This document shows, one piece after another, positions 1 through 20,618 of a stretch of DNA of 37,173 bases (the stretch's first letter is position 1; each line of letters begins with the position of its first letter). The DNA is taken from contig CAZPBI010000004.1 in assembly GCA_964584825.1 (NCBI GenBank), positions 1 through 37,173 on the forward strand, in the 5' to 3' direction. The position numbers and the translations under genes are program-made. Source of the stretch: Candidatus Woesearchaeota archaeon. GTDB taxonomy: Archaea; Nanobdellota; Nanobdellia; SCGC-AAA011-G17; JACPIM01. The notes under the pieces were generated by a model. The model saw nothing but the letters and a program-made list of their open reading frames with translations, ran no database searches and had not been told where the DNA came from.

Positions 1-170
1 ATAATCAATATTCGCATCAAGCCTTCCGCCCCCGCACCAGAATATCCCGTTGCAATCTTTATCCGAAACATTGAAATCAATCCTGTAATTTCCATCCCTA
101 ACTCCAATAATTTCCCCGCCATTGGGTCTTACTATATTCACATCAACAACTTGGTTTGAAGGAGGGATAG
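1..170 (-). repeat. Edge-truncated copy of the ~145-aa repeat domain shared with 1405..1835 and 4636..5520
   Basis: Reverse translation of nt 180-1 reads YPISIPPSNQVVDVNIVRPNGGEIIGVRDGNYRIDFNVSDKDCNGIFWCGGGRLDANIDY. This is colinear with PSNNPIDANTVKIDGNPDN...DGNLTIDFNVFDLDYNGSFWGIGRFDANIEA in 3233..8368. Confidence 0.7.
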
Positions 171-3018
171 AAATAGGGTATCCTAAATTATTCATATCAT
201 ATCTTACATTATAAAGGGAGGCTGTGCCTTCTGTCCACACATAGTCAAGATAATTATGTGTGGAAGTTGAGAGCGTCTGGCTTCTTATTCTAAGATTAGG
301 ATAATGGTTGCCCCTGTTATTATTTGTTATTGGATTGAAATTTGCATCCCATACACCTCCTGAAGTTCTTTTCTTATAAGCAATGTCGCCATTCCCGTGC
401 AATGAATTCGTATCCCAAAAAACATAAATATTATTGTCGGAAGTGTAAGCAATGCTTGCCCATTTATCATCATTTCCTGCTGAATTACTTATATTAATAT
501 CGGCTTCCCAAGCCGCTGAAACTCCACATGAGTTTGCACAGCGTTTATATATTATTTCATAATCCCTTTTTTTTCTGTTACCGTCAGTATTTTGTTGCCA
601 GGCAATATTAAGAGCATCACTATTATCAATGGCAATAACAGGATAGTCAATTGCTGTAGATTGAATCCCATCATTATTATTGAAATCTCCAGATACATTT
701 GTGTCTGTGTGCCAGTTTGCAGTTTGCGAGCAGTTCTTGTCAAGGTTGCACCAGTCATACATTATCTGGCTGGTAAATTGTAAACTTCTGGAGAAAACAA
801 CATGAAGATTTTTATCGCCTGATATTGCAGATGCATTATTCTTAACATCAAATGTGCCACTAATTATTATCGGGACTTCCCAGTTGACATTCCTATCACA
901 GTCTGCGTTTCCTGCACATTTTGTGTAAGTTAATGAGCTATCAAAAGTATTAACATGGAAAATATGAATATTGTCATCATTGTCTATATTCATGGATTGC
1001 GGGACAGGCGACAAGGGACTAAAGTCTACAATCTTTAGCAGAGTTGGCAGGCTCCAGTTCGCTTTTACATTGCAATCTATATGGCATGACACAAAATAAA
1101 CTCTCGGTATATTCTGCGGGTTATCCGCCACATAAGAAACAAGAAGCCCACCATTGCTGTTAATGTCTATTGATGGCATTTGGGCATTTTTTCTTGGCTC
1201 GCCAGCTCCTATGAAGGGATTAAAGCCCGTAATATCAATCGGTGCAGTCCATGTAGCTCCATTATCATCACTTTGCGTGAAGAAAACATTGTTGTCAGTA
1301 TAAACAACATACAGCCTATTGCCGTCCCTGTTCCTGATTATTTTTCTCTGATTGCCATAGGCTGTTGATAGGGCACTTGTAGAGCGGGCAGCAGGCAAAA
1401 CATTATCTATTCTGAAATTATAATCACTGGAATTTCTATCTGTTACTATGCTGTCAGTTACATTAATATCAATAAAAACATTTCTGTCGGTAATAAGGGC
1501 AATATTCCAGTCCCAATGGCAAGTAGTTCCAATGTTTTTATCTTTATTTGAAAAATTCAAATCATCGCAATATCTTCCTTTGTTGCTCCCAACAGAAGCT
1601 CTTGCCATTAAATTAAGGTCGGTAATAATCCTGAAGGAATTCCCATTAACATCCCTCGCATCAATATTCGCATCCAGACCTCCAGAACCAAAAAACACCC
1701 CATTATAATCATCATATACATTGAAATCAATCGTAATATTGCCATCAGCATAATAATCAAAAATAGGCAGGGCTTTATTATCATCATAGCTGTCTATTTT
1801 TACAACATTCACATCAGGCGGTGCATTGATTTTTATCTGCCGTATTGTTGAATAGCATGGCGCAGCCGCCCTGCATCCTGTTGTGTTATTGCTATCCACT
1901 TTACAACGCACATATCTTGTTCCTGCAGAATTTCCAGTAAGAGTCCAGTTCAAATCCACATTTGTAGTTGAAGTTGAAATCGGATTTGCATCGCCCTGAA
2001 TTATTGTAAGAACCTGGTTGCTCTGGTTTGTTGTCATATTCTGTAATGCTGTGCAGGCTGTATTGTTGCAGTCCTCCAAACTGCCGACATAATCGCCTGC
2101 CCCACCTGTTCCGCCAATAGTAACAAAGCAGTCTGCCGAAATGTTTGTGTTCAAATCATAGGAAGCATTGATGTCGGGGTGCATTAGGGTAACAGCAGTC
2201 GGGACTTTTGCATCTTTCCACCAGAGATTGTATTTAATGGTTGTATTTTTTAAAACAACTCCAAATAGGATTTTTAAATCAACAGGAGAAAATAGTTGCC
2301 CAGCTTCTGGCTGTGCAATAATTATAGGATTTGCAATATAATTAACATCATCTTTAACAAAAATACTATCAAACCACAATATCATATCATTCTGAGCAAC
2401 AATATCAAAAATTCTAAACCTATTTACATCTAAATTATTTGCTGCTAAATTTAAATTATTCAAATCATAACCCTTCTCTCCATCCTTCCAATAAGTGAGC
2501 CAATCCCCATTTTTATCAAGAGCAATATTAATATCTGTTGTTTTATAAAAAAGATTAAAATCACAATTATATGAAGTTCTATTTCTAATTAAAGGTTGTA
2601 TGAAAATTCTATTTTGGTCTGGACTATCTAAAGCATATAAAATATTAAAATCAATATAATTGCTACCTATTGGATTTATTGTAGTATAAGCAGTAAGGTG
2701 GGAGTATGTTAAATTGTCAGTATCTTCAAGCCAATTCCAAGCCATGCTATCTACACATTTTTTTGGAATTGTAAAACCACCACATTTCAATTCATAACAT
2801 ACTTCCATATTTGCTTGGTGTTGAGAAGGTGTGTTTGAAATTTGAAATCCTTGTTTTGCAATCCAATAGTTAGCATCGTTGTTGAAAACTCTATAATAAT
2901 TAGAATCTGAATTGTCAATTCCAATTCCAGCCAAAACTAAAGTAGTCAGAAATACCAGAATAATTACTAAAAGCAGTTTTGCACTTTTCAATTGTGCTTT
3001 TGTTTTTCCATCCCACAT
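1..3018 (-). CDS. Giant secreted surface protein, N-terminal ~1006 codons (ORF runs off the left window edge; absent from the ORF track, which omits edge-truncated ORFs)
   Basis: ATG at 3018-3016. N-terminus MWDGKTKAQLKSAKLLLVIILVFLTTLVLAG is a signal/anchor helix. I walked the frame from nt 1 to ~1380 and over the first ~90 codons without a stop, and the track lists no closed ORF in this frame. It has the same modules as 3233..8368: blades such as RCANSCGVSAAWEADINIS ... NIYVFWDT, and the domain DGNITIDFNVYDDYNGVFFGSGGLDANIDARD...TTCHWDWNIALITDRNVFIDINVTD. Confidence 0.8.
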   Translation of the reverse strand, partial: MWDGKTKAQLKSAKLLLVIILVFLTTLVLAGIGIDNSDSNYYRVFNNDANYWIAKQGFQISNTPSQHQANMEVCYELKCGGFTIPKKCVDSMAWNWLEDTDNLTYSHLTAYTTINPIGSNYIDFNILYALDSPDQNRIFIQPLIRNRTSYNCDFNLFYKTTDINIALDKNGDWLTYWKDGEKGYDLNNLNLAANNLDVNRFRIFDIVAQNDMILWFDSIFVKDDVNYIANPIIIAQPEAGQLFSPVDLKILFGVVLKNTTIKYNLWWKDAKVPTAVTLMHPDINASYDLNTNISADCFVTIGGTGGAGDYVGSLEDCNNTACTALQNMTTNQSNQVLTIIQGDANPISTSTTNVDLNWTLTGNSAGTRYVRCKVDSNNTTGCRAAAPCYSTIRQIKINAPPDVNVVKIDSYDDNKALPIFDYYADGNITIDFNVYDDYNGVFFGSGGLDANIDARDVNGNSFRIITDLNLMARASVGSNKGRYCDDLNFSNKDKNIGTTCHWDWNIALITDRNVFIDINVTDSIVTDRNSSDYNFRIDNVLPAARSTSALSTAYGNQRKIIRNRDGNRLYVVYTDNNVFFTQSDDNGATWTAPIDITGFNPFIGAGEPRKNAQMPSIDINSNGGLLVSYVADNPQNIPRVYFVSCHIDCNVKANWSLPTLLKIVDFSPLSPVPQSMNIDNDDNIHIFHVNTFDSSLTYTKCAGNADCDRNVNWEVPIIISGTFDVKNNASAISGDKNLHVVFSRSLQFTSQIMYDWCNLDKNCSQTANWHTDTNVSGDFNNNDGIQSTAIDYPVIAIDNSDALNIAWQQNTDGNRKKRDYEIIYKRCANSCGVSAAWEADINISNSAGNDDKWASIAYTSDNNIYVFWDTNSLHGNGDIAYKKRTSGGVWDANFNPITNNNRGNHYPNLRIRSQTLSTSTHNYLDYVWTEGTASLYNVRYDMNNLGYPISIPPSNQVVDVNIVRPNGGEIIGVRDGNYRIDFNVSDKDCNGIFWCGGGRLDANIDY
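1405..1835 (-). repeat. Complete copy of the ~145-aa repeat domain inside the truncated giant gene
   Basis: It translates to INAPPDVNVVKIDSYDDNKALPIFDYYADGNITIDFNVYDDYNGVFFGSGGLDANIDARDVNGNSFRIITDLNL...RYCDDLNFSNKDKNIGTTCHWDWNIALITDRNVFIDINVTD...SSDYNFRIDN. Nucleotide similarity to 5092..5520 is visible (e.g. gttacattaatatcaataaa...ccaatcccaatg). Confidence 0.75.
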
Positions 3019-3026
3019 CAAATCCC

Positions 3027-3116
3027 TCACAAAATTCCTAATAGCTTTAAAATAACAAAAATCAAAATTAAAAACATTAAAACAAAAACTAAATGTTCAG
3101 CAATTTTATCTATCAT
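3027..3116 (-). CDS. 29-aa single-pass membrane peptide (below ORF-track cutoff)
   Basis: MIDKIAEHLVFVLMFLILIFVILKLLGIL. The ATG overlaps the end of the 41-aa ORF, and the stop lies 8 nt before ATG 3018. It fits the tight operon spacing, but there is no other support. Confidence 0.3.
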   Translation of the reverse strand: MIDKIAEHLVFVLMFLILIFVILKLLGIL

Positions 3117-3231
3117 TTAATTTTCCTTTTTTAATTTTCTCATTGATTTCCCACCAAGTCATTTCGTCACATGAAAAATCATCACTTAATCCTTTAGTAT
3201 AAAACTTTTTTTCAAACTTTGTAAGTTTCAT
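3106..3231 (-). CDS. 41-aa hypothetical protein (below ORF-track cutoff)
   Basis: MKLTKFEKKFYTKGLSDDFSCDEMTWWEINEKIKKGKLNDR. The ATG lies 1 nt after the stop of 3233..8368. It fills an otherwise empty gap in the operon. Confidence 0.3.
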   Translation of the reverse strand: MKLTKFEKKFYTKGLSDDFSCDEMTWWEINEKIKKGKLNDR

Positions 3232-3232
3232 T

Positions 3233-6200: not shown

Positions 6201-8368
6201 AGCCCTTTTGAAATCATTGTGTATGTTAAATTACCTGCTTGATTGACCCAAGCAACATGTGCATTATTATCACTACTAATTTTAATTATTGGATATTCAT
6301 GGTTAGTTTGGTCTGTTTCTTTTCTTGAAACATTTGCATCTGCGCTCCAATTACTATAAGTTGTATTACAATCAACTGTTGTAGTACGAGAACAAGTTTT
6401 TAATACTATTTGTCTGTTTCCTGAAGGACCGGAGAATCCCCAGAAATATGCTACCCATATACCACCTGTAGAATTTATATCTATAACTGGGTCACGAGGA
6501 TTTCCAGTCATTGTATTTGGTTGCCCTGCTGCAATATTCAATACTAATGGAGAACTCCAATTTAAACCATTATCGTCACTCTGTGCAAATAAAACATTAA
6601 AATCTTCTTCCCATACTACAAATAATTTATCTGTTATTGAATCTCTAACAATTTTTCTTCCATACTGAAGAGCACCATTAGTTTTAGTATTATCTCTAAT
6701 TATTGAATTTATTTCTGTAGTAGCAGGAGCATTTGCTGTACCTAAATTGTTAGTATCAAAAAACACTCCAGCACTATTTACATCTATATAATCAATAATA
6801 TTCAATCCATTTAATCCTCCTATTTTTCTTCTAACGTTTATATAATTAGGATTTACAGAAGAAGGAGAAGATAATAGCATATAATTACTATCCCAACCCG
6901 TTGCAGAATTTCTTCTCTTATAAAAAATACGATATGTACTTGCATTATTTTTATCACTCCATACTACATGTATTACTTTATTATTATCAATTACAAAAGA
7001 GGGATATATACTTTCATCAGCTGTTGCACTTACATTCCAATCTTTCCAATTTCCAATTACAGAACAATTGTTTAAACACATTCTATGCATTATATCATTA
7101 GTTGATAAACCTAAACTGTCTTTTTCTTGTTTTGAATAAATTAAATTCCAATTACCATCAGGAGAACCTATTACTGTACTATATTGAGTATTTGCTCCAT
7201 TAACATCTGTCATGTTCAAATCAATCCAATTACTTGCACTTGCATTACAGTCTTTTGAACATTCTGCAAAATGCAAATTTCCATATGGTGTGTTATCTGA
7301 CCATGTAATTGCTTTTCCTCCTGAAGAATTTATATCAATAAATGGATTTCTAACCTCAGCATTTATAGAAATAGAAATAACAACAGCTGTAGAACAAAAT
7401 TGACCAGTGTTAGTACATTGTGAATATTTAATTTGTCTTCCGTCATACCAAGCAATATGAATATTATTATCTGTATCAACTATTACACTTGGATTACCTG
7501 CAGTGCTTGTATTTGTAAAATTATTGCTTACTAACCAATTTGAAGTTGAAGCATTGCAATCTTTTGAACAAGTTCTAATATTTACATCATTACTTCCTAC
7601 TGCTACTACCCATCCTCCTGTAGAATTTACATCAATTGAAGGATTTAATGCTCCTATTAAATTTAAATCGCTCCAAACATTTCCGTCTTGACTTAAACTA
7701 AAAATTGTTTTTGTTCCTTCATCCCAAACTACAGCAATATTTCCATCTGTAAGTGAACGAGCAACTTTGCTTCTTGGTTCTTTAGTTGAGGTAGAAGTAA
7801 AAGAAGCAGAAATAAATGGGTCTAAATCAATTTCAGAATTACTATCAGGAATTGAAACAATAACTTGAATGTTGGTATCAGAAAACTTCAGAATTGAAAC
7901 AGAAAAACCATTACTGTCAATATCAGAAAAATCCATTATTGTATTTGAGAAAGATATTTTTAACCCTTTTATAGTTATTATATCATCAGTTTTTATTTCA
8001 TATATAAAACTTTTCAAATGTCCTGTAGAAGGCTCTGTAAATTTATGTCCCCATTTACTGTAAGTTGAATAATTATTTAAATCTGTAAATTTTCCAGTCA
8101 TTCCTGCCCATGCTTTAATATTTCCTGGAATTGAACTGAAAATATAGTTGTAGTCTATTCCTGATAAACTATAAGTTATTGCATAATTTATATTTGCATC
8201 TTTACTTTTCAGCATATATTTTATATCAATCCAACCATTCATATCTGCTACATTAACATCTTGACCATAGGCATTACCTTTAGAAATTGTTTTAGCTTCT
8301 GTAAAGTTAAACATAAATAAAAAAGAGATAAAAAGCACAGCTATTAACAAATAATCAAAATATTTCAT
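3233..8368 (-). CDS. Giant (1711 aa) C-terminally anchored surface protein: BNR/sialidase-like beta-propeller, 2 tandem repeat domains, Ig-like domains, stalk
   Basis: ATG 8368 with AAGGTGAG SD and an ATGA overlap with the upstream gene. Signal peptide MKYFDYLLIAVLFISFLFMFNFTEA; C-terminal hydrophobic anchor LGWLAIFSFAGGIITKLIGLW. Residues ~190-930 form about 8 blades with strands NIHIAWYDG, VIHVVWSDKNN, SHVVWHDDN, NVYVLWYDNN and C-x3-C...NW loops (CSKDCNASTSNW, CSKDCNASASNW, CLNNCSVIGNW, CSKDCNGNLSNW, CSNNCGVIGNW), plus one canonical Asp-box (SDDNGLNW). These are followed by two ~145-aa tandem domains, two Ig-like domains with a D-x-AGN motif (SVDRAGNIED, VYDLAGNRFD) and a Gly-rich linker GSTGGGGGAGEGA. 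There are many N-x-S/T sequons. Confidence 0.9.
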   Translation of the reverse strand: MKYFDYLLIAVLFISFLFMFNFTEAKTISKGNAYGQDVNVADMNGWIDIKYMLKSKDANINYAITYSLSGIDYNYIFSSIPGNIKAWAGMTGKFTDLNNYSTYSKWGHKFTEPSTGHLKSFIYEIKTDDIITIKGLKISFSNTIMDFSDIDSNGFSVSILKFSDTNIQVIVSIPDSNSEIDLDPFISASFTSTSTKEPRSKVARSLTDGNIAVVWDEGTKTIFSLSQDGNVWSDLNLIGALNPSIDVNSTGGWVVAVGSNDVNIRTCSKDCNASTSNWLVSNNFTNTSTAGNPSVIVDTDNNIHIAWYDGRQIKYSQCTNTGQFCSTAVVISISINAEVRNPFIDINSSGGKAITWSDNTPYGNLHFAECSKDCNASASNWIDLNMTDVNGANTQYSTVIGSPDGNWNLIYSKQEKDSLGLSTNDIMHRMCLNNCSVIGNWKDWNVSATADESIYPSFVIDNNKVIHVVWSDKNNASTYRIFYKRRNSATGWDSNYMLLSSPSSVNPNYINVRRKIGGLNGLNIIDYIDVNSAGVFFDTNNLGTANAPATTEINSIIRDNTKTNGALQYGRKIVRDSITDKLFVVWEEDFNVLFAQSDDNGLNWSSPLVLNIAAGQPNTMTGNPRDPVIDINSTGGIWVAYFWGFSGPSGNRQIVLKTCSRTTTVDCNTTYSNWSADANVSRKETDQTNHEYPIIKISSDNNAHVAWVNQAGNLTYTMISKGLDWNFDGSEGLTKFTATSSGQYDIDVNSTSGIKLIWSIGGAGSDLNYAECSKDCNGNLSNWQTLNISNNSGASAFPQITISNDDKSHVVWHDDNSMADTQIFYKNCSNNCGVIGNWSANDLNISAGNSGKTAREPTITHDYDNNVYVLWYDNNSRSDGNYQVFYRKRTSGGTWDNNATMKYDTNNIFGRGVQAPRDTNAKSNLQKLSFVYVREPIYTVGFNTRLLGTFTAVSTPSNNPIDANTVKIDGNPDNVALPSFTYGTDGNLTIDFNVFDLDYNGSFWGIGRFDANIEARDTNGTPFRIITDLNLMVSGRCNDLNFAGIKDNNKYGTTCHWDWNIALITDRNIFIDINVTDNNGSTDTNSSDYNFRVNPTISAPSNNPIDSNTIKIDGNSDNQPLNYYSYFRDGNLTIDFNVFDLDYNGSFWGVGRLDANIAFRDMNGLTTRIITDLNLTRSKSIGSNAGLYCDDLNFAGIKDNNKYGTTCHFDWNIVYVTDRNVFIDINVTDNNGSTDTNSSDFNFGIDNTKPTTTSVDFNYLWQKNNVLVRLTCSDNNSGCDTTRYRIDTNDLNDDSMGSWITYSSAFSVKNDGNWRVDFNSVDRAGNIEDTNTQYVFSDSNLPYATSAIPTSDENATSINISLSIDDDLSKLDYCDFNVYKNDIFYKENQREVLTPVDKSCGIVDTNEVGGDTIKVDFAVYDLAGNRFDYNSFIITFSSGASVSAGSTGGGGGAGEGAIITTTQPLTQVYTEAQLSTISTIVNSFAAVNKIYTQSEFDALLANLQIQNQIPINSTDLTNFLNSVGSSQLVSREVAIEKTIEGGGGEEKVVISDNQVVLTPKLVEDLVSTKVLYVVPGEKKLYTITLSNKTRKEIPLTVTIDKQLQPYVKLVSDVKVVGVEKATKLEFEVYSSTKIEKKIEGYIELNLNNKQELIYEKLTLSGQEENIFVSLANMPIIPLSQEIPGIGKTITLGWLAIFSFAGGIITKLIGLW
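4636..5520 (-). repeat. Tandem in-frame duplication (period ~456 nt) encoding two ~145-aa domains
   Basis: Copy A is about 5092..5520 and copy B about 4636..5091. Proteins: SNNPIDANTVKIDGNPDN...NLTIDFNVFDLDYNGSFWGIGRFDANIEARD...GTTCHWDWNIALITDRNIFIDINVTDNNGSTDTNSSDYNF versus SNNPIDSNTIKIDGNSDN...NLTIDFNVFDLDYNGSFWGVGRLDANIAFRD...GTTCHFDWNIVYVTDRNVFIDINVTDNNGSTDTNSSDFNF. Confidence 0.9.
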
Positions 8369-8682
8369 CTTCTCACCTTAATACATTTTTTAATAGTATA
8401 AAAACTCATACTTGCCCACACTGCTGCAGCTAAAATTCCAGCAATAGATGCTTTAGTTTCATCTGAAGAAATATCATTATGATTACCATAAACTGCAAAT
8501 GCTTTATTAGAATTAATTTCTATACATACTTTTGTTACAGAAGTAGCAAAATATGCATGATAAGATTCATGTACTGCAAGAAATACCATTGTAGAGCTTA
8601 ATGCAGTCATGACTATTAATATCATTATATGAAAATTCAATAACAATCCCCTCTTTTTTCTTCCACAACTGATTCCCCTCAC
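8365..8682 (-). CDS. Small membrane protein with HExxH motif (putative membrane-embedded zinc metallopeptidase)
   Basis: The tracked start is GTG 8682; ATG 8625 (MILIVMTALSS...) is more likely. A TM helix runs straight into LAVHESYHAYF (HExxH), and there is a second hydrophobic helix IAGILAAAVWASMSFY. The stop overlaps the ATG of the giant gene (ATGA). Confidence 0.55.
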   Translation of the reverse strand: MRGISCGRKKRGLLLNFHIMILIVMTALSSTMVFLAVHESYHAYFATSVTKVCIEINSNKAFAVYGNHNDISSDETKASIAGILAAAVWASMSFYTIKKCIKVRR

Positions 8683-8712: not shown

Positions 8713-9312
8713 CTATATAAATCTTTTTATTTTACTTCTAAATACATATCCCAAAATTACTAAAACAACCAAAATTGCAATAATTGTATTTGTTCCTATT
8801 TTGCCAGTTATTGCCTCATTAACTACAGGAATTTTACACAAACTTTCATCAATATATTTAAATTCAATCATATTTTTCATTTCACAATCTGAAGTTAATG
8901 GGTTTATTGTATTAACCTCAATTTCCCTGCTCTGTAAAACCCTTCCATCTTCTTTACATTCAACATTTTTCCAATCGCCTAAAATCTCTTTTCCTTCGCA
9001 TAATTTACATCTCTCATCTGCTATATCTCTATATTTTGTTTCTGAAACAATGTTGCAAGTAGATGGCTGATTGAACTGCCTAACTTGAGACTGGTGCATT
9101 TCTCCTTTTAGACAAAATTCATCTTTCCAATCAGTTAATTTTTCTGTTGCTCCATAGCAAACACAATTTGTAGTATTGGAAACACCTCCAATCCCTAGAT
9201 ATGAATAATTTGTTGGATGTATGTCTTTTACACTACTTTCACAATAAGTTGTTGCATTCACTGCTGCTAAAAATGCAATTGCAAATAGCAGAATTAAAAT
9301 TAATTTTTTCAT
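8713..9312 (-). CDS. Cys-rich type-I membrane protein (signal peptide + C-terminal anchor)
   Basis: Signal MKKLILILLFAIAFLAAVNA. C-terminal TM plus basic stop-transfer IIAILVVLVILGYVFRSKIKRFI. Internal duplication CVCYGATEKLTDWKDEFC / CKLCEGKEILGDWKNVEC. Confidence 0.8.
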   Translation of the reverse strand: MKKLILILLFAIAFLAAVNATTYCESSVKDIHPTNYSYLGIGGVSNTTNCVCYGATEKLTDWKDEFCLKGEMHQSQVRQFNQPSTCNIVSETKYRDIADERCKLCEGKEILGDWKNVECKEDGRVLQSREIEVNTINPLTSDCEMKNMIEFKYIDESLCKIPVVNEAITGKIGTNTIIAILVVLVILGYVFRSKIKRFI

Positions 9313-9509
9313 TTTATTCTCCTTTTATGTGATTTTATAGACACAATTCTTAATTCATTATTTCTTAGTTCCCTTAATTCATATTTTAACTCTTTATATC
9401 TTCTTTCATAATCTAATAATCTTCTTTCACAATCAACAATCTCATCATCAAGTAAATACATTTCTGTTCTTATTTCATTTATTCTTTTTGTAATTCTTTC
9501 TCCTTTCAT
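9309..9509 (-). CDS. 66-aa coiled-coil protein with C-terminal IKSHKRRIK tail
   Basis: ATG 9509 behind AAGGTGAG, with ATGA overlaps on both sides. Heptad-like charged sequence EIVDCERRLLDYERRYKELKYELRELRNNEL. Confidence 0.65.
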   Translation of the reverse strand: MKGERITKRINEIRTEMYLLDDEIVDCERRLLDYERRYKELKYELRELRNNELRIVSIKSHKRRIK

Positions 9510-9895
9510 TTTCTCACCTTAATTTTCAAATATCTCAAAACAATAATTACTGCTGCAAAAAACAATACTAAATGAACGACCCAACCTGCAATATCATTTA
9601 CATATAATTCAACCCCTATAATCTCTGGGAATATTGTTTTATATCCATAAATTGTTAGGAAATAATAATATCCTGAAGCAATAGTTGAATGTATTGCAGA
9701 AGCAATAGCAATATTAATGTATGTAAATTTTTTCAAATACTTAACTAAAATATATGCTGAGAGTGATGCTATGATAAATTTAGCTACAAAATATTCAGGA
9801 ACTTCCATTGGTGTAGTTAAGAATAAGTGAAACACATAATCTAAAAAAACAAACGCTGCTGCAATTAATAAAATCATTTTAGTTTGTTCTTTCAT
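9506..9895 (-). CDS. Polytopic membrane protein (about 4 TM)
   Basis: Hydrophobic helices MILLIAAAFVFLDYVFHLF, FIIASLSAYILV, IAIASAIHSTIASGYYYFL, WVVHLVLFFAAVIIVL. ATGA overlaps on both sides. Confidence 0.75.
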   Translation of the reverse strand: MKEQTKMILLIAAAFVFLDYVFHLFLTTPMEVPEYFVAKFIIASLSAYILVKYLKKFTYINIAIASAIHSTIASGYYYFLTIYGYKTIFPEIIGVELYVNDIAGWVVHLVLFFAAVIIVLRYLKIKVRK

Positions 9896-11269: not shown

Positions 11270-11566
11270 TCATTTTATCAATCCTGCCACAACTGTAAAC
11301 ACTATTGCTGCACTAATTGGAAATATAAATAAAGCTGTAGCAATTATTGAAATTGCCCAAGCAATCATTCCTTCTAAATGCAAATAATTTTCTACTATGT
11401 ATCTTTTTATCAAATACACTTCAACTATAAATATTATTATGTATATCAAACCCAATTCCCAAAGTTTAGAGAGAATAGAAATATATCTTCCAAAATCAAG
11501 ACCATTCTGATAGCTCATTGATTGGGCAGCAGAAATTGCTTCATTTAATGCATTTGTATCAACCAT
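11270..11566 (-). CDS. 98-aa membrane protein (2-3 TM)
   Basis: ATG behind AGGTGA. Helices LGLIYIIIFIVEVYLI and MIAWAISIIATALFIFPISAAIVFTVVAGLI. Confidence 0.65.
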   Translation of the reverse strand: MVDTNALNEAISAAQSMSYQNGLDFGRYISILSKLWELGLIYIIIFIVEVYLIKRYIVENYLHLEGMIAWAISIIATALFIFPISAAIVFTVVAGLIK

Positions 11567-11572
11567 TTTTCA

Positions 11573-11755
11573 TCACCTAATAAATCTACAAACCAATGCT
11601 TGTGCTAAAACTACTATTCCCGCAATTATGGAATATTTACTTAACTCTATAAACATATCTGTTTGCACAAAATAATTTTGAGAATACAAATATCCTATTC
11701 CTCCAATCAATAGTATTCCTCCCAAAATTAATGAATTTTTTTGTGTTAATTCCAT
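11573..11755 (-). CDS. 60-aa membrane protein (2 TM)
   Basis: ATG behind AAAGGAGA. Helices LILGGILLIGGIGYLY and YSIIAGIVVLAQALV. Confidence 0.6.
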   Translation of the reverse strand: MELTQKNSLILGGILLIGGIGYLYSQNYFVQTDMFIELSKYSIIAGIVVLAQALVCRFIR

Positions 11756-11768: not shown

Positions 11769-12644
11769 TTATGCTGTTAGATTTGATAAATTTACATCAC
11801 TAATTTCTACTAATCTTGTTTTTACAAACGCTGCTAAAAATATCACAGCAATTACGAAAGCAACAATTATCAATAGCGATTTGTCCGGAAGTACACTTGT
11901 TGGAGCAAAAAACAAGGCAAGTGTATTATTAACAATATGCGCACTCATCGGAATTATGAAGTCCTTATAGACAACTGCTAATCCTAAAAAGAAAAATCCC
12001 ATCACAAGTTGAGGTATAGCCCCGACGTACGCAGATGTCCCAATGCCCTTTGTATCACTTACGAAGCTAATAAATCCTCCAATGCTATATTCATATGCCT
12101 CCTTTCCTCTTACTGCAAAATGGAAGGCTGCAAAGACTAATGAGACAATTACAATTGAAGTAATTACAGGGTAAGGAACTTTTTTGCTGCGAAGAATTAG
12201 TGAAATTATTATCATTGCGGTAATGACTAAGAATGTCTCAGTTATGGGTTGAATTAATGTGGCAAACAGAACGCTTTCATTTCCTATACTTCCCAATTCT
12301 GCAAATGTTATGCTTCCCATCAAATTATTCAAAGCAGAAATTCCAGACATGAGAAATCCGATGGTGACAATCAAAAGTACGCCCCACACAAAACCTACTG
12401 ATAATCTACTAAATAATTTTTGTTGATTAGGAACATCAAAATATTCCCCTACTTCTTTCTTTTTGCGAGTAGCAAATATGAGAATGGTACTTCCGACAGT
12501 ACCCGCGAGTAGGAGATTCCATAAGGAAGCCTCCCTGGTTGATAATTCTGGACTAACTGTGAAAAGGAAGAGTGAACTGATAGTAACAAGAAATACTAGA
12601 TATAAAATTACATTACTTTCAAGTTTTGGCATTTTAAAAATCAC
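11769..12644 (-). CDS. CPBP/Abi (CAAX-protease-like) family intramembrane protease homologue, divergent
   Basis: Polytopic protein. It has motif 2 F-x3-H (VFAAFHFAVRG) and motif 3 H-x3-N (MSAHIVNNTL). Motif 1 is degenerate (ITETFLV instead of EExxxR). There is no Cys, so it is not an archaeosortase. The tracked start is GTG 12644; ATG 12632 (MPKLES...) behind AGGTG is likelier. Confidence 0.6.
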   Translation of the reverse strand: MIFKMPKLESNVILYLVFLVTISSLFLFTVSPELSTREASLWNLLLAGTVGSTILIFATRKKKEVGEYFDVPNQQKLFSRLSVGFVWGVLLIVTIGFLMSGISALNNLMGSITFAELGSIGNESVLFATLIQPITETFLVITAMIIISLILRSKKVPYPVITSIVIVSLVFAAFHFAVRGKEAYEYSIGGFISFVSDTKGIGTSAYVGAIPQLVMGFFFLGLAVVYKDFIIPMSAHIVNNTLALFFAPTSVLPDKSLLIIVAFVIAVIFLAAFVKTRLVEISDVNLSNLTA

Positions 12645-12818
12645 CTACATTCTTTCTACTTTTGCTTCCCACCAATGTGTTCCTTTTTTCCTTCTCCTCA
12701 TTATTTCTCTTGCTTTTTTTATTGCTTGTTTTTTGTTTGATGCAAATAGTACAGTATTTAATCTATATTCAAATTTGTATGGTTTAAGTCCTCTTGTATG
12801 TGCTTTTACATTTACCAT
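12645..12818 (-). CDS. 57-aa basic protein, N-terminus MVNVKAHTRG (below ORF-track cutoff)
   Basis: AAGGAAG SD 8 nt before ATG 12818 (an upstream ATG at 12824 is too close to the SD). MVNVKAHTRGLKPYKFEYRLNTVLFASNKKQAIKKAREIMRRRKKGTHWWEAKVERM. The stop abuts the start of the CPBP gene. Confidence 0.5.
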   Translation of the reverse strand: MVNVKAHTRGLKPYKFEYRLNTVLFASNKKQAIKKAREIMRRRKKGTHWWEAKVERM

Positions 12819-12842
12819 TTTCATAACTTCCTTTGTGTTTTA

Positions 12843-13073
12843 TTACCTCTTTACAAAATATGCATTTAAAAATTCTTCACTTACCCACATTTCTCTATCT
12901 CTTCCATTCAAATAATATCTTATTAAATATTCTTCTTCTTCATTTGTAGCATCTTTTTTATCAATATACACTTTTATGTGACTTCCTTCTCCTGGTATGG
13001 TTCCAATTAAATCATCTCCAATCTTATATGCACTATATTTGTTTGCTCTTGTATATTCTCTTACATTAATCAT
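12843..13073 (-). CDS. 76-aa protein, N-terminus MINVREYTRA
   Basis: The tracked ORF starts at 13091 inside the upstream gene. ATG 13073 lies just after that gene's stop and behind GAAAGGGGAAG. The N-terminal motif is shared with 12645..12818. Confidence 0.6.
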   Translation of the reverse strand: MINVREYTRANKYSAYKIGDDLIGTIPGEGSHIKVYIDKKDATNEEEEYLIRYYLNGRDREMWVSEEFLNAYFVKR

Positions 13074-13074
13074 T

Positions 13075-13257
13075 TTATCTTCCCCTTTCATGCTCTTTTA
13101 CAGCAATCGGTTTTATTTCAAACTTCAATTTTCTCCCACTTTTATCTACTTCAAACTCACCTTTAAATCCTTTCTTATATAATTTTTGAACTGCTTCTTG
13201 GTATTCATCCGCACTTCGTTTTCTGCTTTCTTTTCTATAACTATCAAAGAATCCCAT
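13075..13257 (-). CDS. 60-aa basic protein, C-terminal AVKEHERGR
   Basis: ATG 13257 behind AAAGGAGG. Lys/Arg/Glu-rich with no hydrophobic segment. Confidence 0.6.
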   Translation of the reverse strand: MGFFDSYRKESRKRSADEYQEAVQKLYKKGFKGEFEVDKSGRKLKFEIKPIAVKEHERGR

Positions 13258-13259
13258 GT

Positions 13260-13472
13260 TTACATCCTCCTTTCATGTGATTTGACATCTACTCCATATT
13301 CTTTGTATAAAGCTACTTTTATATTATCAACTTCAAATCCTCGTAAATCAAACTTTTCTGGATATTTTATAAGAATTCTCATGTCTTCTTCTGATAGATA
13401 TTCAACATCACTTGGGTCAGTGATTTCACTATCTCTTTCTATTATATCTGCTAAACTTGTAAATGAACTCAT
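13260..13472 (-). CDS. 70-aa acidic protein with C-terminal VDVKSHERRM tail
   Basis: ATG 13472 behind AGGAGGAGGT. The body is acidic (DSEITDPSDVEYLSEEDM). Confidence 0.65.
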   Translation of the reverse strand: MSSFTSLADIIERDSEITDPSDVEYLSEEDMRILIKYPEKFDLRGFEVDNIKVALYKEYGVDVKSHERRM

Positions 13473-13485
13473 TTTTTACCTCCTC

Positions 13486-13596: not shown

Positions 13597-13606
13597 GCGC
13601 TATTGA

Positions 13607-13843
13607 TTAGATATAATCCTGAACGTCTGGCACGTATGCAGCCAATACTTTTATTATCAGCACTGCTATGAACAGACTTACTATAGTTCCCACTGCCAGT
13701 GGCAACGAAACTTCAGCGATGAATCCTGTAGTCGCTAACATTGGAACTATGAATGCATTTACAATGAACGTTGATACGACGGAAAGAAGCACTGCCAGAA
13801 CTATTGACTGTGTCAATATTTTTTGATAGTCAATATTTACCAT
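13607..13843 (-). CDS. 78-aa membrane protein (2 TM)
   Basis: ATG behind AAAGGAGGGT. Helices SIVLAVLLSVVSTFIVNAFIV and LPLAVGTIVSLFIAVLIIKVLAAY. Confidence 0.7.
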   Translation of the reverse strand: MVNIDYQKILTQSIVLAVLLSVVSTFIVNAFIVPMLATTGFIAEVSLPLAVGTIVSLFIAVLIIKVLAAYVPDVQDYI

Positions 13844-13848
13844 GTTTT

Positions 13849-14382
13849 TTACCCTCCTTTTTCTTCAATACCAACAATTAATTTTGGTAAGAGTAATTTT
13901 TCTTCCAATTCTCTGTCTGATATTTCCTCTTGTGTTTCCTTTTCTTTATTAACAATCTTAATCCTGTAACGTATTTCCACTCTTCGCAAAACTTCTACTA
14001 CACTCCAAGAAATTAAAGTTGCTGCAGTTCCGACAGCCATCATTTCCCCCAATGAAAACTGTAAAGAAAAATTGGAAATTGCAAGCACGACACCTCCAAA
14101 AGCACTCAGAACTAATTTTGCTTCAGGAGAAAGTTCCACAATATATGATAGCATTTCTTTTTGCAGAGCATTGTCAAAAATGCGCCAATCCGCTGCAATT
14201 CTATATGCTGCAAATAAAGTTCCAGCAGTTAAGAAACTCATAAACATGGACAACTCTATTGGAACTCTCAATAATAATAAAAAGAGAGTTTGGGCTAGCA
14301 AACCCATGCACATGAAGCTCCAAATTGTTCCTGACTTTCTCATATTCTTACCTTTAAGCATAAAGGGACTTTTTCTTTTCAT
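13849..14382 (-). CDS. Polytopic membrane protein with charged C-terminal tail
   Basis: About 4 hydrophobic helices followed by KIVNKEKETQEEISDRELEEK. The start is uncertain: ATG 14382 lacks an SD, whereas ATG 14343 (MRKSGTIW...) follows AAAGGTAAG. Confidence 0.7.
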   Translation of the reverse strand: MKRKSPFMLKGKNMRKSGTIWSFMCMGLLAQTLFLLLLRVPIELSMFMSFLTAGTLFAAYRIAADWRIFDNALQKEMLSYIVELSPEAKLVLSAFGGVVLAISNFSLQFSLGEMMAVGTAATLISWSVVEVLRRVEIRYRIKIVNKEKETQEEISDRELEEKLLLPKLIVGIEEKGG

Positions 14383-14403
14383 AGGAGAAGCCCCATAACC
14401 TAT

Positions 14404-15387
14404 TTATTTTTTCTTTCTTGTTGCGAAGTAAATTAATCCTATTACAGCAATTACTATTATCCACATTGGTACTGCTGTTGTTCCTAACATCATTGTACTT
14501 CCTAAGAACGCTTGAACTGCTCCTACTTGTGCTGCTGCTTGTGCTTGTTGTGTAGTTGTTGTTGTTCCTCCTTGAGATTGCTGAATTAATTCTTGTGGTA
14601 CTCCCAATGTTCCTGTAGACACACTTCCTTGCTTTGATGAAAAATTATTTGCTGCATCAAATTTCGCAAGACATGTGTAGTAGGTTTTTGGATATTGCAA
14701 ACCCTTAATAGTTGTTTCTGTTAGTGTTGAATCATTGCTGTCAGATGTTGAGTTTGGATAGTTTGTGCAGGTTTCTTGATATAACGTTCCATAATACACT
14801 CTCCAAAATGAATATTCTAATGGAGAACTATTACTATCTTGCAACCACTTAATTTTTACTGTTCCATTTTCCATTGGCTGAACGTAAGCCTCTGGTGGAG
14901 TTGGTGTTGAATTATCAGCAAAGAATCCAGAACTGCATACAATATTATTATCTGGTGCTAATTTGTCTGCTCCTCTGTGGACATTGTAGTCATTAACATT
15001 AACATCAATCCAATAATTTAAATCTATTGAATTGACATCAAAACTAACACTACATGTTCTTCCTGTTCTTATATTGCTGTCTGTATCACTACAATCTGTA
15101 TCTGACATCAAATTTATATCTTTGATTTTCAAGCAGTTTGAATCTGACATTGCAAGTGTTGATGTTTTACAGACATAAACATTTGCATCATGTGTTCCGC
15201 TTATATCACTATTTGTATCAGACCAAGCAAAGTTTATTGTATGTGTCCCTTTCCAATATTTTGTTGTATCAGGTTGAGATACATTACAATCTAAAGTTCC
15301 CTGCAAAGCTGTTGATGTTGTAATTAATGTTATGAAAACCATCGCCATTAATGCTGTTAATATTGCGCTTCTCCTTACACTTCCCAT
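14404..15387 (-). CDS. Type-I membrane protein: diverged copy of the giant-protein repeat domain + FN3-like domain + Thr/Gln-rich stalk + TM
   Basis: Signal/anchor ILTALMAMVFITLITTSTA. INFAWSDTN...RTCSVSFDVNSIDLNYWIDVNVNDYN resembles ...TTCHWDWNI...IFIDINVTDNN. FN3-like stretch PPEAYVQPMENGTVKIKWLQDS...FWRVYYG. GGTTTTTQQAQAAAQ stalk. C-terminal WIIVIAVIGLIYFATRKKK. Confidence 0.85.
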   Translation of the reverse strand: MGSVRRSAILTALMAMVFITLITTSTALQGTLDCNVSQPDTTKYWKGTHTINFAWSDTNSDISGTHDANVYVCKTSTLAMSDSNCLKIKDINLMSDTDCSDTDSNIRTGRTCSVSFDVNSIDLNYWIDVNVNDYNVHRGADKLAPDNNIVCSSGFFADNSTPTPPEAYVQPMENGTVKIKWLQDSNSSPLEYSFWRVYYGTLYQETCTNYPNSTSDSNDSTLTETTIKGLQYPKTYYTCLAKFDAANNFSSKQGSVSTGTLGVPQELIQQSQGGTTTTTQQAQAAAQVGAVQAFLGSTMMLGTTAVPMWIIVIAVIGLIYFATRKKK

Positions 15388-15435
15388 TTTTTGACCTCCG
15401 CTTATTTTATTATCATTTTTAATGAATGATAAATA

Positions 15436-15705
15436 TTATATTCTCTTTTTATGTGATTTAACTTTTACTTTTTTATCCCAATATCTTGATTCTTCTTTAG
15501 AAATTTTCATAAAATATGTGTCTAAACTAACTCCTTTTTTTGCACTATCTACTATTGCTTTTGCTCGCTTAATTGCAAACTCTTTTGTAGATGCTGGACC
15601 ACTCAAACTATCTCTAATTGTTTGGTCTTCTCTCCAAACAAAATAATTCCAAGCAAAAATTGACTTTTCTACTAAAATATTATATCCTTTGTATTTTATT
15701 TTCAT
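15436..15705 (-). CDS. 89-aa soluble protein with C-terminal VKVKSHKKRI tail
   Basis: ATG behind AGGAAGGAGA. There is no hydrophobic segment. Confidence 0.7.
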   Translation of the reverse strand: MKIKYKGYNILVEKSIFAWNYFVWREDQTIRDSLSGPASTKEFAIKRAKAIVDSAKKGVSLDTYFMKISKEESRYWDKKVKVKSHKKRI

Positions 15706-15707
15706 TT

Positions 15708-16217
15708 TTATCTCCTTCCTCTCTTTTTTGTTCTGTTATACAAAACTGAAACAACAAATACTGCTAAAATTACTAATATAAAATTTCCAGTTGTCATTTC
15801 AACTCCACCACCTTGAGAAATCATTGTTGTTTTAACTCCTTCAAAAACACTTCCAGTTTGTAAGGGAATGACACCTAAAAATTTAGAAGTGAATTGTTGT
15901 ATATTGTTGCCGAAAAATCCTATCACCAAACCCATTATGCCCATCACTAAGAAAACGAAATTCAAAGTTAAATTCCATCCATGACCTTTAAATATTGGAA
16001 TGGCGGGAGCCATTACAGCAAGCCCAATGAATATTATTCCGAAAAGTACTGCTCCAAGGAAAGGAAAAGCTCCAGCTAACAAAGTGAGAATAAAAACTCC
16101 TATTCCAAAAGCAATTACTGTTTGAAGTATTTGTTGAAGACTTAAATATTTTTCAAATGTTTTTCCCCCTTCTCCTCTTTCTCTATAAATAGAATCTGGA
16201 CCATATTCATATGCCAT
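15708..16217 (-). CDS. Polytopic membrane protein (4-5 TM)
   Basis: Gly/Ile/Phe-rich helices (VIAFGIGVFILTLLAGAFPFLGAVLFGIIFIGLAVMAPAIPIF ...). The ATG directly abuts the upstream stop. Confidence 0.8.
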   Translation of the reverse strand: MAYEYGPDSIYRERGEGGKTFEKYLSLQQILQTVIAFGIGVFILTLLAGAFPFLGAVLFGIIFIGLAVMAPAIPIFKGHGWNLTLNFVFLVMGIMGLVIGFFGNNIQQFTSKFLGVIPLQTGSVFEGVKTTMISQGGGVEMTTGNFILVILAVFVVSVLYNRTKKRGRR

Positions 16218-17288: not shown

Positions 17289-17353
17289 TTCAACACCATC
17301 TTTTATTCCTTACCCCTAACCTATTCCATCTAAACATACCATTCTAACATACC

Positions 17354-19066: not shown

Positions 19067-19067
19067 T

Positions 19068-19517
19068 CTATTTCACCTCAAATGGGGTTTTGTATTTTAT
19101 ATATTTGAATATATATAATAGAATATATATTATAATTGCAGATAATATCAAATCAAAAATTATTCCCATCAAACTAAATCCTTTACTCAAAACATTTAAT
19201 CCGACAATCCAAATAGAGTTAAGCAAAAACCATTTAGTAAAAACTTCTTGGGGTTTTAAGGTTTTAAACAAGAATTTGTGATAAATAAAACCCAAAATTG
19301 TCCACTTGACTATTTCCACTATTGCAATTACAACAAACATCCCTACTGTAACAATTCCCAATATTGTTGCGAAAAATGGAAGTAACTCCAAACCACCAGT
19401 TAAGGTGGAAAAAGTTATTCCAATAAGGTTACCAATTAGAAAAATTATAATGGAATATGCAACAGCAACTATTCCCCCAAAAATAATCCATTCACGAAAA
19501 TCAAAATCTTCTACCAT
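19068..19517 (-). CDS. Polytopic membrane protein (about 4 TM)
   Basis: ATG behind GAGGAG. Helices IIFGGIVAVAYSIIIFLIGNLIGI, LLPFFATILGIVTVGMFVVIAIV, and others. Confidence 0.8.
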   Translation of the reverse strand: MVEDFDFREWIIFGGIVAVAYSIIIFLIGNLIGITFSTLTGGLELLPFFATILGIVTVGMFVVIAIVEIVKWTILGFIYHKFLFKTLKPQEVFTKWFLLNSIWIVGLNVLSKGFSLMGIIFDLILSAIIIYILLYIFKYIKYKTPFEVK

Positions 19518-19548
19518 TATTTTCTCCTCACAAAATTTTAAATATTAA

Positions 19549-19576
19549 GGAGGCAACCAAAAAAATAATCGCCTCC
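19549..19576. terminator. Stem-loop (GGAGGC-16 nt-GCCTCC) flanked by A/T runs; possible attenuator/partial terminator after the first gene of the operon
   Basis: A perfect 6-bp GC-rich stem in AT-rich DNA, between 19608..20618 and 19068..19517. It is flanked by an A7 run on one side and a T7 run on the other, so a T-run follows the stem on either strand. Confidence 0.4.
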
Positions 19577-19607
19577 ATTTTTTTGAAATAAGGATTTAAT
19601 TTAGTAA

Positions 19608-20618
19608 CTAGTTGATGTAAATATTCTGGTCAACATTTGCTCTTCCAATCGCTGTCCCGTCTTCTGTATCTTCAATATCATATTTGAAACCGTGTCCATC
19701 AGTTGCATCAAAGTATAAGCTAGTGTCCAAGAACGCAATGTTAATATCATTTGCCAAATCATTCTGCCCAATTCCGCTCTGTATTTTAACAGTCAATGTC
19801 ACAACTTTCTTTGTCAAATCTGGTAGTGCTGAGAAATTGAATCTTGCTGCATACTTCCTACTGATGTATGTCAAAGGCAATCCAACGCTTGTTGCATCTG
19901 TTCCATCTGGGTTTTTGAATCTAACACTATTAATCCAGCTGCTGTTGTAATCTGCAACTGCTGTTATCCCAGTGTCTACTGCGTATGGGTCACCGAATGA
20001 TGCTTTGCTCGGTCCTTTGAGTGTGATTTCAATACTATCAGTCTCTCCTACTGCCATATCCCACTGAGTTCCTGATGCATTTACTGTTCCATCAGGGTTA
20101 TTTGCCCAAGCTGTCAATGCTCCTTCTTTATACATCTTAACACTCACTGATGCTGTCGGTGCTATTGGCACAACATAATTTCTATTAATCCAGCCGTACC
20201 AATCATTTGTTCCATCAAGAACAACGCTTGTGTTACCATCAACCCCTGTCGTCTGACCATCATCAAACATCGCTATTGAAAGTGTTTCTCCTGGATTCAC
20301 ACTTACTGTCGCTGTTAACAGAGAACCACTATCTAAAATAGTAGCACTATTTCTCTGTACAATTCCTTCAACATCTACAACTGCCCCAGGAACAAAATTG
20401 TCCTCAGGTGCCAGAGATAGAGTTGTTGAAGTTATTGTCTGGTATGATTGCAAACCTGTTGTAGTTGGAGTTGTAGTTGTGGTTGTTGTTGTGGTTACTG
20501 CTTCTCCTGTAGTCGTTCCTTCAGTAGGCGCTTTTAAATATCCGCCACCAAACAGAATCGCTACAACGAAAAGTCCTATGATAATCCACTTGGTATTTTG
20601 ATTTTGTCCATTTGCCAT
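19608..20618 (-). CDS. Probable major structural/surface protein: N-terminal TM anchor, poly-Thr stalk, beta-rich C-terminal domain
   Basis: First gene after the promoter region, with a strong SD (AAGGAGGT). WIIIGLFVVAILFGGGYL anchor, then TTTTTTTTTPTTTG. The nucleotide composition is visibly GC-richer than the neighbours. A stem-loop follows. Confidence 0.85.
   Translation of the reverse strand: MANGQNQNTKWIIIGLFVVAILFGGGYLKAPTEGTTTGEAVTTTTTTTTTPTTTGLQSYQTITSTTLSLAPEDNFVPGAVVDVEGIVQRNSATILDSGSLLTATVSVNPGETLSIAMFDDGQTTGVDGNTSVVLDGTNDWYGWINRNYVVPIAPTASVSVKMYKEGALTAWANNPDGTVNASGTQWDMAVGETDSIEITLKGPSKASFGDPYAVDTGITAVADYNSSWINSVRFKNPDGTDATSVGLPLTYISRKYAARFNFSALPDLTKKVVTLTVKIQSGIGQNDLANDINIAFLDTSLYFDATDGHGFKYDIEDTEDGTAIGRANVDQNIYIN

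Follow-up and report, generated by a model that had tools for sequence, protein, structure and literature searches.

What function is served by 20.6 kb of DNA whose genes all lie on one strand and encode little but membrane and secreted proteins, with no recognizable capsid machinery? The question is raised by contig CAZPBI010000004.1 of a Candidatus Woesearchaeota archaeon (assembly GCA_964584825.1), which was analysed over its complete length of 37,173 bp (the window), and in which such a block occupies nucleotides (nt) 1-20618 of the minus strand. Gene content and synteny indicate that the contig is a virus-like archaeal mobile element and that the block is a module conserved across an element family not described before. 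We see about an even chance that the block serves attachment, fusion and envelope formation in a transfer that is mediated by membranes, either in enveloped particles or by cell fusion.

All 24 open reading frames (ORFs) of at least 45 amino acids (aa) in the block lie on the minus strand, in agreement with a preliminary description of this DNA, and the coding density is 97%. The description had counted about 26 genes and had placed the limit of the block at 20618; at this position, a gap of 690 nt without coding sequence ends and the first gene begins, and the co-oriented stretch extends past it, upstream to ~25329. Its picture of ATGA overlaps or short spacers at most junctions fits 14 of the 23 junctions (≤15 nt), four of these being 4-nt ATGA-type overlaps. 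A Shine-Dalgarno sequence, GGAGG or GGTGA, precedes most gene starts. Using a Kyte-Doolittle scan (19-aa window, threshold 1.6), at least one transmembrane (TM)-like segment was identified in 18 of the 24 block products, the number of membrane or secreted proteins proposed previously, compared with one marginal case among 13 products of the plus-strand arm (Fisher p = 1e-4). Six products have a type-I architecture (N-terminal signal or anchor, C-terminal TM and basic tail), and all are termed cysteine-rich, with 44, 24, 8, 16, 10 and 22 cysteines in the 570-, 356-, 327-, 421-, 199- and 1711-aa proteins, respectively; six to seven anchored ectodomain proteins had been recognized earlier. A truncated protein of at least 1006 aa is a paralogue of the 1711-aa protein. 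Seven other products are polytopic or have two TMs (149, 169, 177, 129, 291, 98 and 78 aa), and six are soluble and no longer than 89 aa (89, 70, 60, 82, 59 and 66 aa), besides a doubtful 46-aa ORF.

The arrangement recurs in related contigs, referred to here by L numbers. Gene order is shared for six families (those of the 336-, 177- and 78-aa proteins, the CPBP protease, and the 421- and 199-aa proteins) between the window and two near-identical contigs, L003 (JBMXPR010000028.1, from an NCBI metagenome-assembled genome (MAG)) and L004. The 421-aa family is present in two copies in L003, where the gene of the 199-aa family is followed by one for a giant CARDB protein. In contigs that carry relatives of the 570-aa protein (L006, L008/9, L011-L031), an N-anchored beta-rich protein comes first and is followed by small TM proteins, the cysteine-rich protein, further small proteins, in many cases a protease of the Rce1-like type, and at least one giant surface protein with varied adhesion domains. 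Blocks of small TM proteins and giant surface proteins similar to that of the window surround the 570-family gene in L006, L008/9, L011, L013, L014 and L028-L031, and in several relatives a second cysteine-rich protein comes after this gene. The first, N-anchored gene of L006, L009, L029 and L030 has no detectable homology to the 336-aa family and has only its architecture in common with it. The distal giant proteins contain BNR-like domains in the window and CARDB, NosD/beta-helix/discoidin or FG-GAP/TSP3 domains in the relatives, a variability that is expected for receptor-binding proteins. Genes adjoining the blocks encode DUF5906 primase-helicases (L006, L029), tyrosine integrases (L008/9, L028) and transposases (L013, L030).

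Only three homologues of the 336-aa protein were found among 5.8e9 clusters, one of which heads the syntenic module in L003; a profile search with this family identified no further members, and no relatives were found in IMG/VR, GTDB representatives or JGI metagenome contigs. A word-indexed search with the 570-aa protein returned no homologues, and an exhaustive HMMER search recovered ~119 representative clusters (defined at 50% identity) at E ≤ 1e-3, 50 of them at E ≤ 1e-30. The members are 450-600 aa long, with ~26 invariant or nearly invariant cysteines and one to three C-terminal TMs (two to three in several members). Neither the 336- nor the 570-aa family was found in IMG/VR, INPHARED or PLSDB, nor, in a scan with short peptide patterns, in 185,579 GTDB species representatives.

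A possible function for the module is provided by L003, in which the gene directly after the 336-family gene (6286-8238) encodes a 650-aa type-I homologue of fusexin-1 (Fsx1) with a single C-terminal TM; the gene is present in L004 as well. The same slot in the window holds the genes for the 149-aa polytopic protein and the 570-aa protein. The L003 protein matched the NCBIfam model NF053506 ('fusexin 1') over residues 172-530 with E = 2.9e-32 and a score well below the equivalog cutoff, and this match confirms its precomputed Pfam label PF28161 (Fsx1). The element that encodes it is low in guanine plus cytosine (GC; 31%), the protein is distant from the Fsx1 proteins of halophiles known to date, and it had no matches in phage or plasmid collections. 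Fsx1 is an archaeal homologue of HAP2 and of viral class II fusogens that fuses cells when expressed, and its genes have been described only in integrated mobile elements (PMC9259645); Moi et al. 2022 reported no evidence of fusexins in archaeal viruses (PMC9259645). Since a fusexin homologue occupies the matching position in a close relative, a role of the block in attachment and membrane fusion is suggested. The 570-aa protein appears to be a positional, and possibly functional, replacement of the fusexin, and is a candidate fusogen or entry protein.

The 570-aa protein has the type-I topology of fusexins, with a signal peptide, a disulfide-bonded ectodomain, a stem and a C-terminal TM. Its beta-rich N-terminal domain covers residues 57-323; the disulfide-knot repeats lie at 330-460, the stem hairpin at 491-515 and the TM at 519-539, and the hydropathy scan placed hydrophobic segments at 9-27 and 520-538. 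An AlphaFold 2 (AF2) model built from 64 homologues was fairly confident (predicted local distance difference test (pLDDT) 79; predicted template-modelling score (pTM) 0.51) and shows a long-stranded beta-rich N-terminal region, disulfide knots, the stem hairpin and the TM helix. Identification of the protein as a fusexin was considered and rejected, since it has no PDB, Foldseek or NF053506 match and hhalign aligns the stem only.

Several results weigh against the reading as an attachment, fusion and envelope module. The 570-aa model had no Foldseek match at E ≤ 1e-3 in PDB or BFVD and none to Fsx1, HAP2 or viral class II proteins; its best weak resemblances were to single jelly rolls (E ≥ 0.01, template-modelling score <0.3). 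Searches of PDB with the single sequence or a profile were likewise negative, and the three-domain class II beta-sheet fold (domains I-III) was not found in the window. A scan with NF053506 of the 570-, 356-, 327-, 421-, 199- and 336-aa proteins, which left out the two giant proteins and had the L003 protein as positive control, gave no match at E ≤ 0.01. The similarity between the 570-aa protein and the L003 fusexin is limited to the membrane-proximal stem and TM (BLASTP E = 9e-5; 28 columns in hhalign, probability 43%), and this short likeness is of moderate significance. The most divergent 570-family members (L024 5935-7901, L025 10-2003, L027 9366-11389), each located after a conserved ~195-aa partner, occur in settings (UvrD helicase, type IB topoisomerase, 13-TM transporter) whose mobile character is uncertain. 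The AF2 model of the 336-aa protein is unreliable (pLDDT 48), the module lacks an ATPase for packaging or of the AAA+ morphogenesis type, and sequence is missing at both ends of the contig, where capsid or packaging genes could lie. The data show the layout of the genes, predicted membrane topologies, a virus-like archaeal backbone, a module conserved among elements and a fusexin homologue in the corresponding slot of a syntenic relative; the role of every individual protein, the fusogenic activity of the 570-aa family and the formation of particles are points that we infer.

The fusexin homologue also brings in the main rival, transfer by cell-cell fusion without a virion, in which adhesins and a fusogen on the donor surface would lead to fusion with a neighbouring cell and passage of the element. 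Such donor-cell fusion has been proposed for haloarchaeal fusexin-carrying integrated mobile elements (PMC9259645), and it is the form in which the cell-surface island considered in the preliminary description persists as a rival, that is, carried by a mobile genetic element (MGE). We regard it as rather unlikely. Consistent with it are the fusexin-1 homologue in a syntenic relative, the description of Fsx1 only in integrated mobile elements and its activity on expression (PMC9259645), the tyrosine integrases of L008/9 and L028 and the lack of capsid or packaging genes among those found, and DNA hypermodification would be equally protective for DNA entering by fusion. However, the window lacks the integrase, HerA, VirB4 and TraG-like genes that mark published Fsx1 elements and has a viral-looking backbone, with a deazaguanine cluster and a Sak4/RadB-like ATPase nearest to that of an archaeal virus; moreover, the many small two-TM matrix-like proteins and the abundant product of the first gene suggest a dedicated structure beyond a fusogen.

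Under the favoured explanation, that of an attachment, fusion and envelope module, the block would place proteins in a lipid membrane so that the element moves between cells. The giant and rapidly exchanged distal adhesins (3233-8368 and 1-3018) would bind the target cell, and the 570-aa protein, perhaps with the 356-, 421- and 199-aa proteins, would constitute the entry or fusion machine. The small polytopic and two-TM proteins may form a membrane matrix or coat with the abundant first product (336 aa), the CPBP intramembrane protease may mature or regulate one of the module's proteins, and the small basic soluble proteins may bind DNA or act in assembly. The most likely outcome would be enveloped particles (pleomorphic, spindle-shaped or vesicle-like) with 7-deazaguanine-modified DNA inside; it would be less likely that a donor cell fuses directly with a recipient. 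An enveloped or vesicle-type morphogenetic module had been suggested previously. Our results support this in part, through a virus-like element, a conserved family unmatched by known viruses, plasmids or reference genomes and a fusexin homologue in a relative; the making of particles or vesicles and a morphogenetic role remain proposals. In a more far-reaching reading, which is rather unlikely but has a real chance, the 570-aa family would be a new class of archaeal membrane fusogen, swappable with fusexin-1, and the elements would form an enveloped or pleomorphic lineage that is new among archaeal viruses.

The virus-like character of the contig is most evident in its plus-strand arm, which encodes two uncharacterized proteins (497 and 357 aa), a RadB/AAA_24 ATPase, PCNA, the small subunit of RFC, QueE, QueC, a phosphoribosyltransferase (PRTase), QueD, FolE and a QueF-like protein. 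The RFC small subunit is of the archaeal type (NF001679, E = 2.5e-61), the sliding clamp is of the PCNA type (E = 1.5e-14), and the sole match of the RadB/Sak4-like ATPase among 50,697 phage records was in Methanobacterium virus PhiF1 (38.7% identity, E = 3e-47). The genes of a complete preQ0 (7-deazaguanine) pathway, for QueE, QueC, the PRTase-like protein, QueD, FolE and the QueF-like protein, lie at 32754-36677 (+), and a TGT/DpdA transglycosylase domain, which may lie beyond nt 37173, was not found in the contig. The 7-deazaguanine pathway is typical of viral anti-restriction. It is because of RFC, PCNA, the RadB-like ATPase and the 7-deazaguanine cluster that the contig is assigned to a virus-like archaeal mobile element. 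The 497-aa protein had no match in the phage or plasmid collections, and the replication proteins had no relatives in IMG/VR. The partial last ORF of this arm (36750-37173, +) contains a CxxCxxCC cysteine cluster.

The same genes bear on whether the block could be an ordinary chromosomal cell-envelope locus of an uncultivated archaeon, misread as a mobile element, as had been allowed for in the preliminary description. That L003 was binned in an NCBI MAG and that the window has neither terminal repeats nor an integrase would fit a chromosomal locus. Nevertheless, housekeeping genes are missing from the 37 kb, the genes for replication and DNA modification are of viral type, integrases, primase-helicases and transposases are found in relatives, and the pattern scans of the 185,579 species-representative genomes detected no relatives; such an origin is highly improbable.

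No terminal repeats were found in the contig, and its end at nt 1 cuts a minus-strand ORF, so the genome it represents is incomplete; an exact-protein look-up for its extension returned only contigs of <1 kb, and identical genes are present in SRR12113383 and SRR12113430. Among the larger window proteins, scans with Pfam, PHROGs and NCBIfam identified no capsid, portal or terminase family, and fold searches with the 336- and 570-aa models, of the kind called for in the preliminary description, gave no capsid fold, in agreement with that description, which had noted no HK97, double-jelly-roll, portal or terminase signature. In particular, no terminase, portal or HK97 major capsid protein (MCP) of the HK97/Caudoviricetes type was found in this incomplete contig, profile searches gave no match to the double-jelly-roll MCP and FtsK/HerA-type ATPase of Varidnaviria, and the VP3-like protein, VP4-like protein and AAA+ ATPase of Pleolipoviridae had no PHROG or Pfam match, nor the 570-aa model a match in BFVD. 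No packaging ATPase was recognizable in either arm, Pfam scans of window proteins of ≥100 aa contained no XerC/D, HerA or VirB4/TraG, and the precomputed labels of ~10 related contigs (11-37 kb) included no terminase, portal, HK97, double-jelly-roll protein or MCP. The 336-aa protein, considered as a possible capsid protein, gave a model too poor for this purpose (pLDDT 48), for which Foldseek returned only generic immunoglobulin-like, pilin or cohesin sandwiches; it had no Pfam, PHROG, NCBIfam or PDB match and is a candidate major surface or coat component.

An incomplete contig could also belong to a conventional archaeal virus with a tailed or icosahedral capsid, the structural genes of which lie in the unsequenced part. 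The block would then be an accessory island for surface remodelling or host interaction, which might, for instance, exclude superinfection, help in adhesion to host cells or, if the host is of DPANN type, help in attachment between symbiont and host. The ATPase of the replication arm is nearest to that of a tailed Methanobacterium virus, giant adhesins and cysteine-rich surface proteins are typical of cellular surface islands too, and some 570-family members occur in contexts that are not MGE-like. Against this, the conserved core of the ~10 related contigs is the membrane module and not a capsid module, accessory genes of at least 20 kb would exceed half of the 37-kb contig, and relatives are absent from IMG/VR. 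Virus detection in IMG/VR relies on capsid-type hallmark genes. We consider an accessory island improbable.

The features of the window are collected in Table 1.

Table 1. Location and character of the features discussed, in order of decreasing coordinate within the block and upstream of it.
Feature	Position	Strand	Basis or remarks
Replication and DNA-modification arm	26640..37173	+	Profile matches
AT-rich (24.5% GC) divergent intergenic region	25330..26640	.	GC skew changes sign here
Upstream same-strand genes	21309..25329	-	SPFH/Band-7, DUF559-like endonuclease, three small TM proteins, coiled-coil and acidic proteins
Leader, probable operon promoter region	20619..21308	-	690 nt; no credible ORF and no database-matching ORF
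First gene, 336 aa	19608..20618	-	N-terminal TM anchor/signal, Thr-rich linker, Cys-free beta-rich domain of ~270 aa
Polytopic membrane protein, 149 aa, 4 TM-like segments	19068..19517	-	Hydropathy scan
Cys-rich (44 Cys) type-I membrane protein, 570 aa	17354..19066	-	Gene that marks the element family
Cys-rich (24 Cys) type-I membrane protein, 356 aa	16218..17288	-	Shared CxxDxDC-type knot motifs
Polytopic membrane protein, 169 aa, 3 TM, basic C-terminal tail	15708..16217	-	Hydropathy scan
Soluble basic protein, 89 aa, C-terminal VKVKSHKKRI (shared motif)	15436..15705	-	Sequence
Type-I membrane protein, 327 aa, 8 Cys, Thr/Gln-rich stalk, TM+RKKK end	14404..15387	-	Sequence and hydropathy
Membrane protein, 177 aa, 2 TM	13849..14382	-	Kept in L003 (150 aa), tblastn E = 3e-24
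Two-hydrophobic-helix protein, 78 aa	13607..13843	-	Segments 14-32 and 49-67; kept in L003
Four small soluble proteins, 70, 60, 82, 59 aa	12645..13472	-	Terminal V-[KR]-x-[HY]-x-R motif
CPBP/Rce1-like intramembrane glutamic protease, 291 aa, 7 TM	11769..12644	-	Pfam PF02517
Two small membrane proteins, 60 and 98 aa, 1-2 TM each	11270..11755	-	Hydropathy scan
Type-I Cys-rich (16 Cys) membrane protein, 421 aa	9892..11157	-	Family: two in L003, one in L006, one in L030
Polytopic membrane protein, 129 aa, 3 TM	9506..9895	-	Hydropathy scan
Soluble coiled-coil-like protein, 66 aa, C-terminal VSIKSHKRRIK (shared motif)	9309..9509	-	Sequence
Type-I Cys-rich (10 Cys) membrane protein, 199 aa	8713..9312	-	Kept in L003 (231 aa)
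Small membrane protein, 86-105 aa, HESYH (HExxH) at end of TM	8365..8682	-	No family match
Giant type-I surface protein, 1711 aa	3233..8368	-	Asp-box (SxDxGxxW)/BNR-like propeller regions, 150-aa repeat domain x3, C-terminal TM
Doubtful ORF, 41-46 aa	3106..3246	-	Between the two giant genes
Second giant surface protein, ≥1006 aa, cut by contig end	1..3018	-	Paralogue of the 1711-aa protein

Within the block, scans of essentially all window proteins with Pfam, PHROGs and NCBIfam matched only the CPBP protease. Its match to PF02517 (E = 2e-6; 28.4 bits, cutoff 22.4) and the presence of the FxxxH (FAAFH) and HxxxN (HIVNN) motifs, with EExxxR reduced to one Glu, make the sequence-based assignment to the CPBP/Rce1-like family solid; the protease is kept in L003 (E = 3e-32), and Rce1-like genes occur in L006 and L008 too. 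Two protease-like products had been proposed for the block, and the second is represented only by the HExxH motif of the product of 8365..8682, which on this motif alone is possibly a minimal membrane metalloprotease and for which Met20 is a likelier start than the doubtful annotated GTG. The 356-aa protein is a possible companion of the 570-aa protein. The two giant proteins are 62-65% identical over the 150-aa domain and 34% identical over 450 aa; as recent paralogues, they suggest ongoing duplication and diversification of the presumed adhesins, the 1711-aa protein presumably being an adhesin or receptor-binding protein.

The 78-aa protein resembles in architecture the major membrane or coat proteins of spindle or pleomorphic viruses. 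The previous statement that the block has no spindle signature was therefore too strong as regards architecture, yet homology was not detected: the protein had no PHROG match, no tblastn match in the phage collection and none among plasmids. Among the soluble products, the V-[KR]-x-[HY]-x-R motif, with seven occurrences in window proteins compared with 0.49 expected from shuffling, stands at the extreme C- or N-terminus of six proteins (15436-15705, 13260-13472, 13075-13257, 12843-13091, 12645-12824 and 9309-9509) and twice in tandem in a 110-aa protein of a related module (L029 12999-13331). The small motif proteins match no Pfam families, and the four encoded at 12645..13472 are possible nucleic-acid-binding or assembly factors.

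The leader preceding the first gene contains a TATA-like box (cctttatata), a strong Shine-Dalgarno sequence (aaggaggt) before that gene and a 23-nt near-perfect inverted repeat at 20881-20927, and has no Rfam match; neither tRNAs nor Rfam RNAs were found anywhere in the contig. Farther upstream, the SPFH/Band-7 gene (21935-22735, E = 2.7e-35) is followed by one for a small TM protein (21694-22735 together), and a DUF559-like endonuclease is encoded at 22750-23655. SPFH/Band-7 is uncommon as cargo of virus-like elements and may bear on membrane microdomain organisation. The GC content is ~30% along the whole contig, and GC skew is negative from 1 to ~25 kb and positive beyond, which fits two divergent gene arms. 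The region between them (25330-26640) contains three ACTTTTTAACTTTTTAA repeats (25577-25659) and many inverted repeats and is probably a replication origin or control region with divergent promoters.

Through its synteny with the window, a module that bears a fusexin is linked to a virus-like genomic backbone, and a large unannotated protein family, that of the 570-aa protein, is found in the fusexin slot. A fusexin in an archaeal virus would lend weight to a virus-first origin for HAP2, the gamete fusogen (PMC9259645). If the new-fusogen reading is true, this would be the first viral context for a prokaryotic fusexin, with direct consequences for the 'virus or the egg' debate over where HAP2 and class II fusogens came from. 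If enveloped particles are made, the elements would constitute archaeal viruses of a new group that has escaped the detection pipelines in use today, none being in IMG/VR, and would provide candidate fusogens for which cell-fusion assays already exist. Spread by cell fusion would instead extend fusion-dependent gene transfer beyond haloarchaea.

How does the element compare with known systems? Like the window, Fsx1 elements are mobile and have as their hallmark a large type-I disulfide-rich surface protein with one or more C-terminal TMs; Fsx1 has two to three, as do several 570-family members, and L003 and L004 encode a true Fsx1 homologue in the 570-aa slot. Unlike them, the window has no Fsx1 profile or fold match, lacks XerC/D, HerA, VirB4 and TraG, and is low in GC and non-halophile-like, with a viral-type replication and DNA-modification arm. 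Pleolipoviridae resemble what we propose for the window in having a vesicle-type virion with spike or fusion type-I proteins, small internal membrane proteins and no capsid, and in a non-lytic lifestyle; however, they are 7-17 kb with conserved VP3-like, VP4-like and ATPase genes, and the window module is about three times larger with none of these detected. The plasmid-vesicle system pR1SE of Halorubrum lacusprofundi, an extrachromosomal element with many membrane proteins and no known capsid genes that spreads in membrane vesicles, would be a further likeness in concept; in the plasmid collection, the 570-aa marker protein had no match.

Spindle viruses (Fuselloviridae, Halspiviridae, Thaspiviridae, DNSV-1/2) share with the window family their genome size class, a majority of unannotatable genes and the lack of icosahedral capsid genes; the 78-aa two-helix protein, coat-like in architecture, and the very large genes of the presumed terminal adhesins are possible further likenesses. 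Integrases, not found in the window, are a likeness to the related elements L008/9 and L028, and in DPANN spindle viruses an integrase is combined with a coat protein that is small, hydrophobic and helical and with an adhesin exceeding 1900 codons (bioRxiv 10.1101/2025.02.15.638363). The window differs from spindle viruses in having no sequence match to known coat proteins (PHROGs and phage collection), far more type-I cysteine-rich ectodomain proteins and no AAA+ ATPase found. On these comparisons, the element would belong broadly with membrane-based archaeal viruses or MGEs, as a member of a family of its own that has not been described; by gene architecture its closest published relatives are the spindle-shaped viruses and, by likely mechanism, the fusexin-carrying elements.

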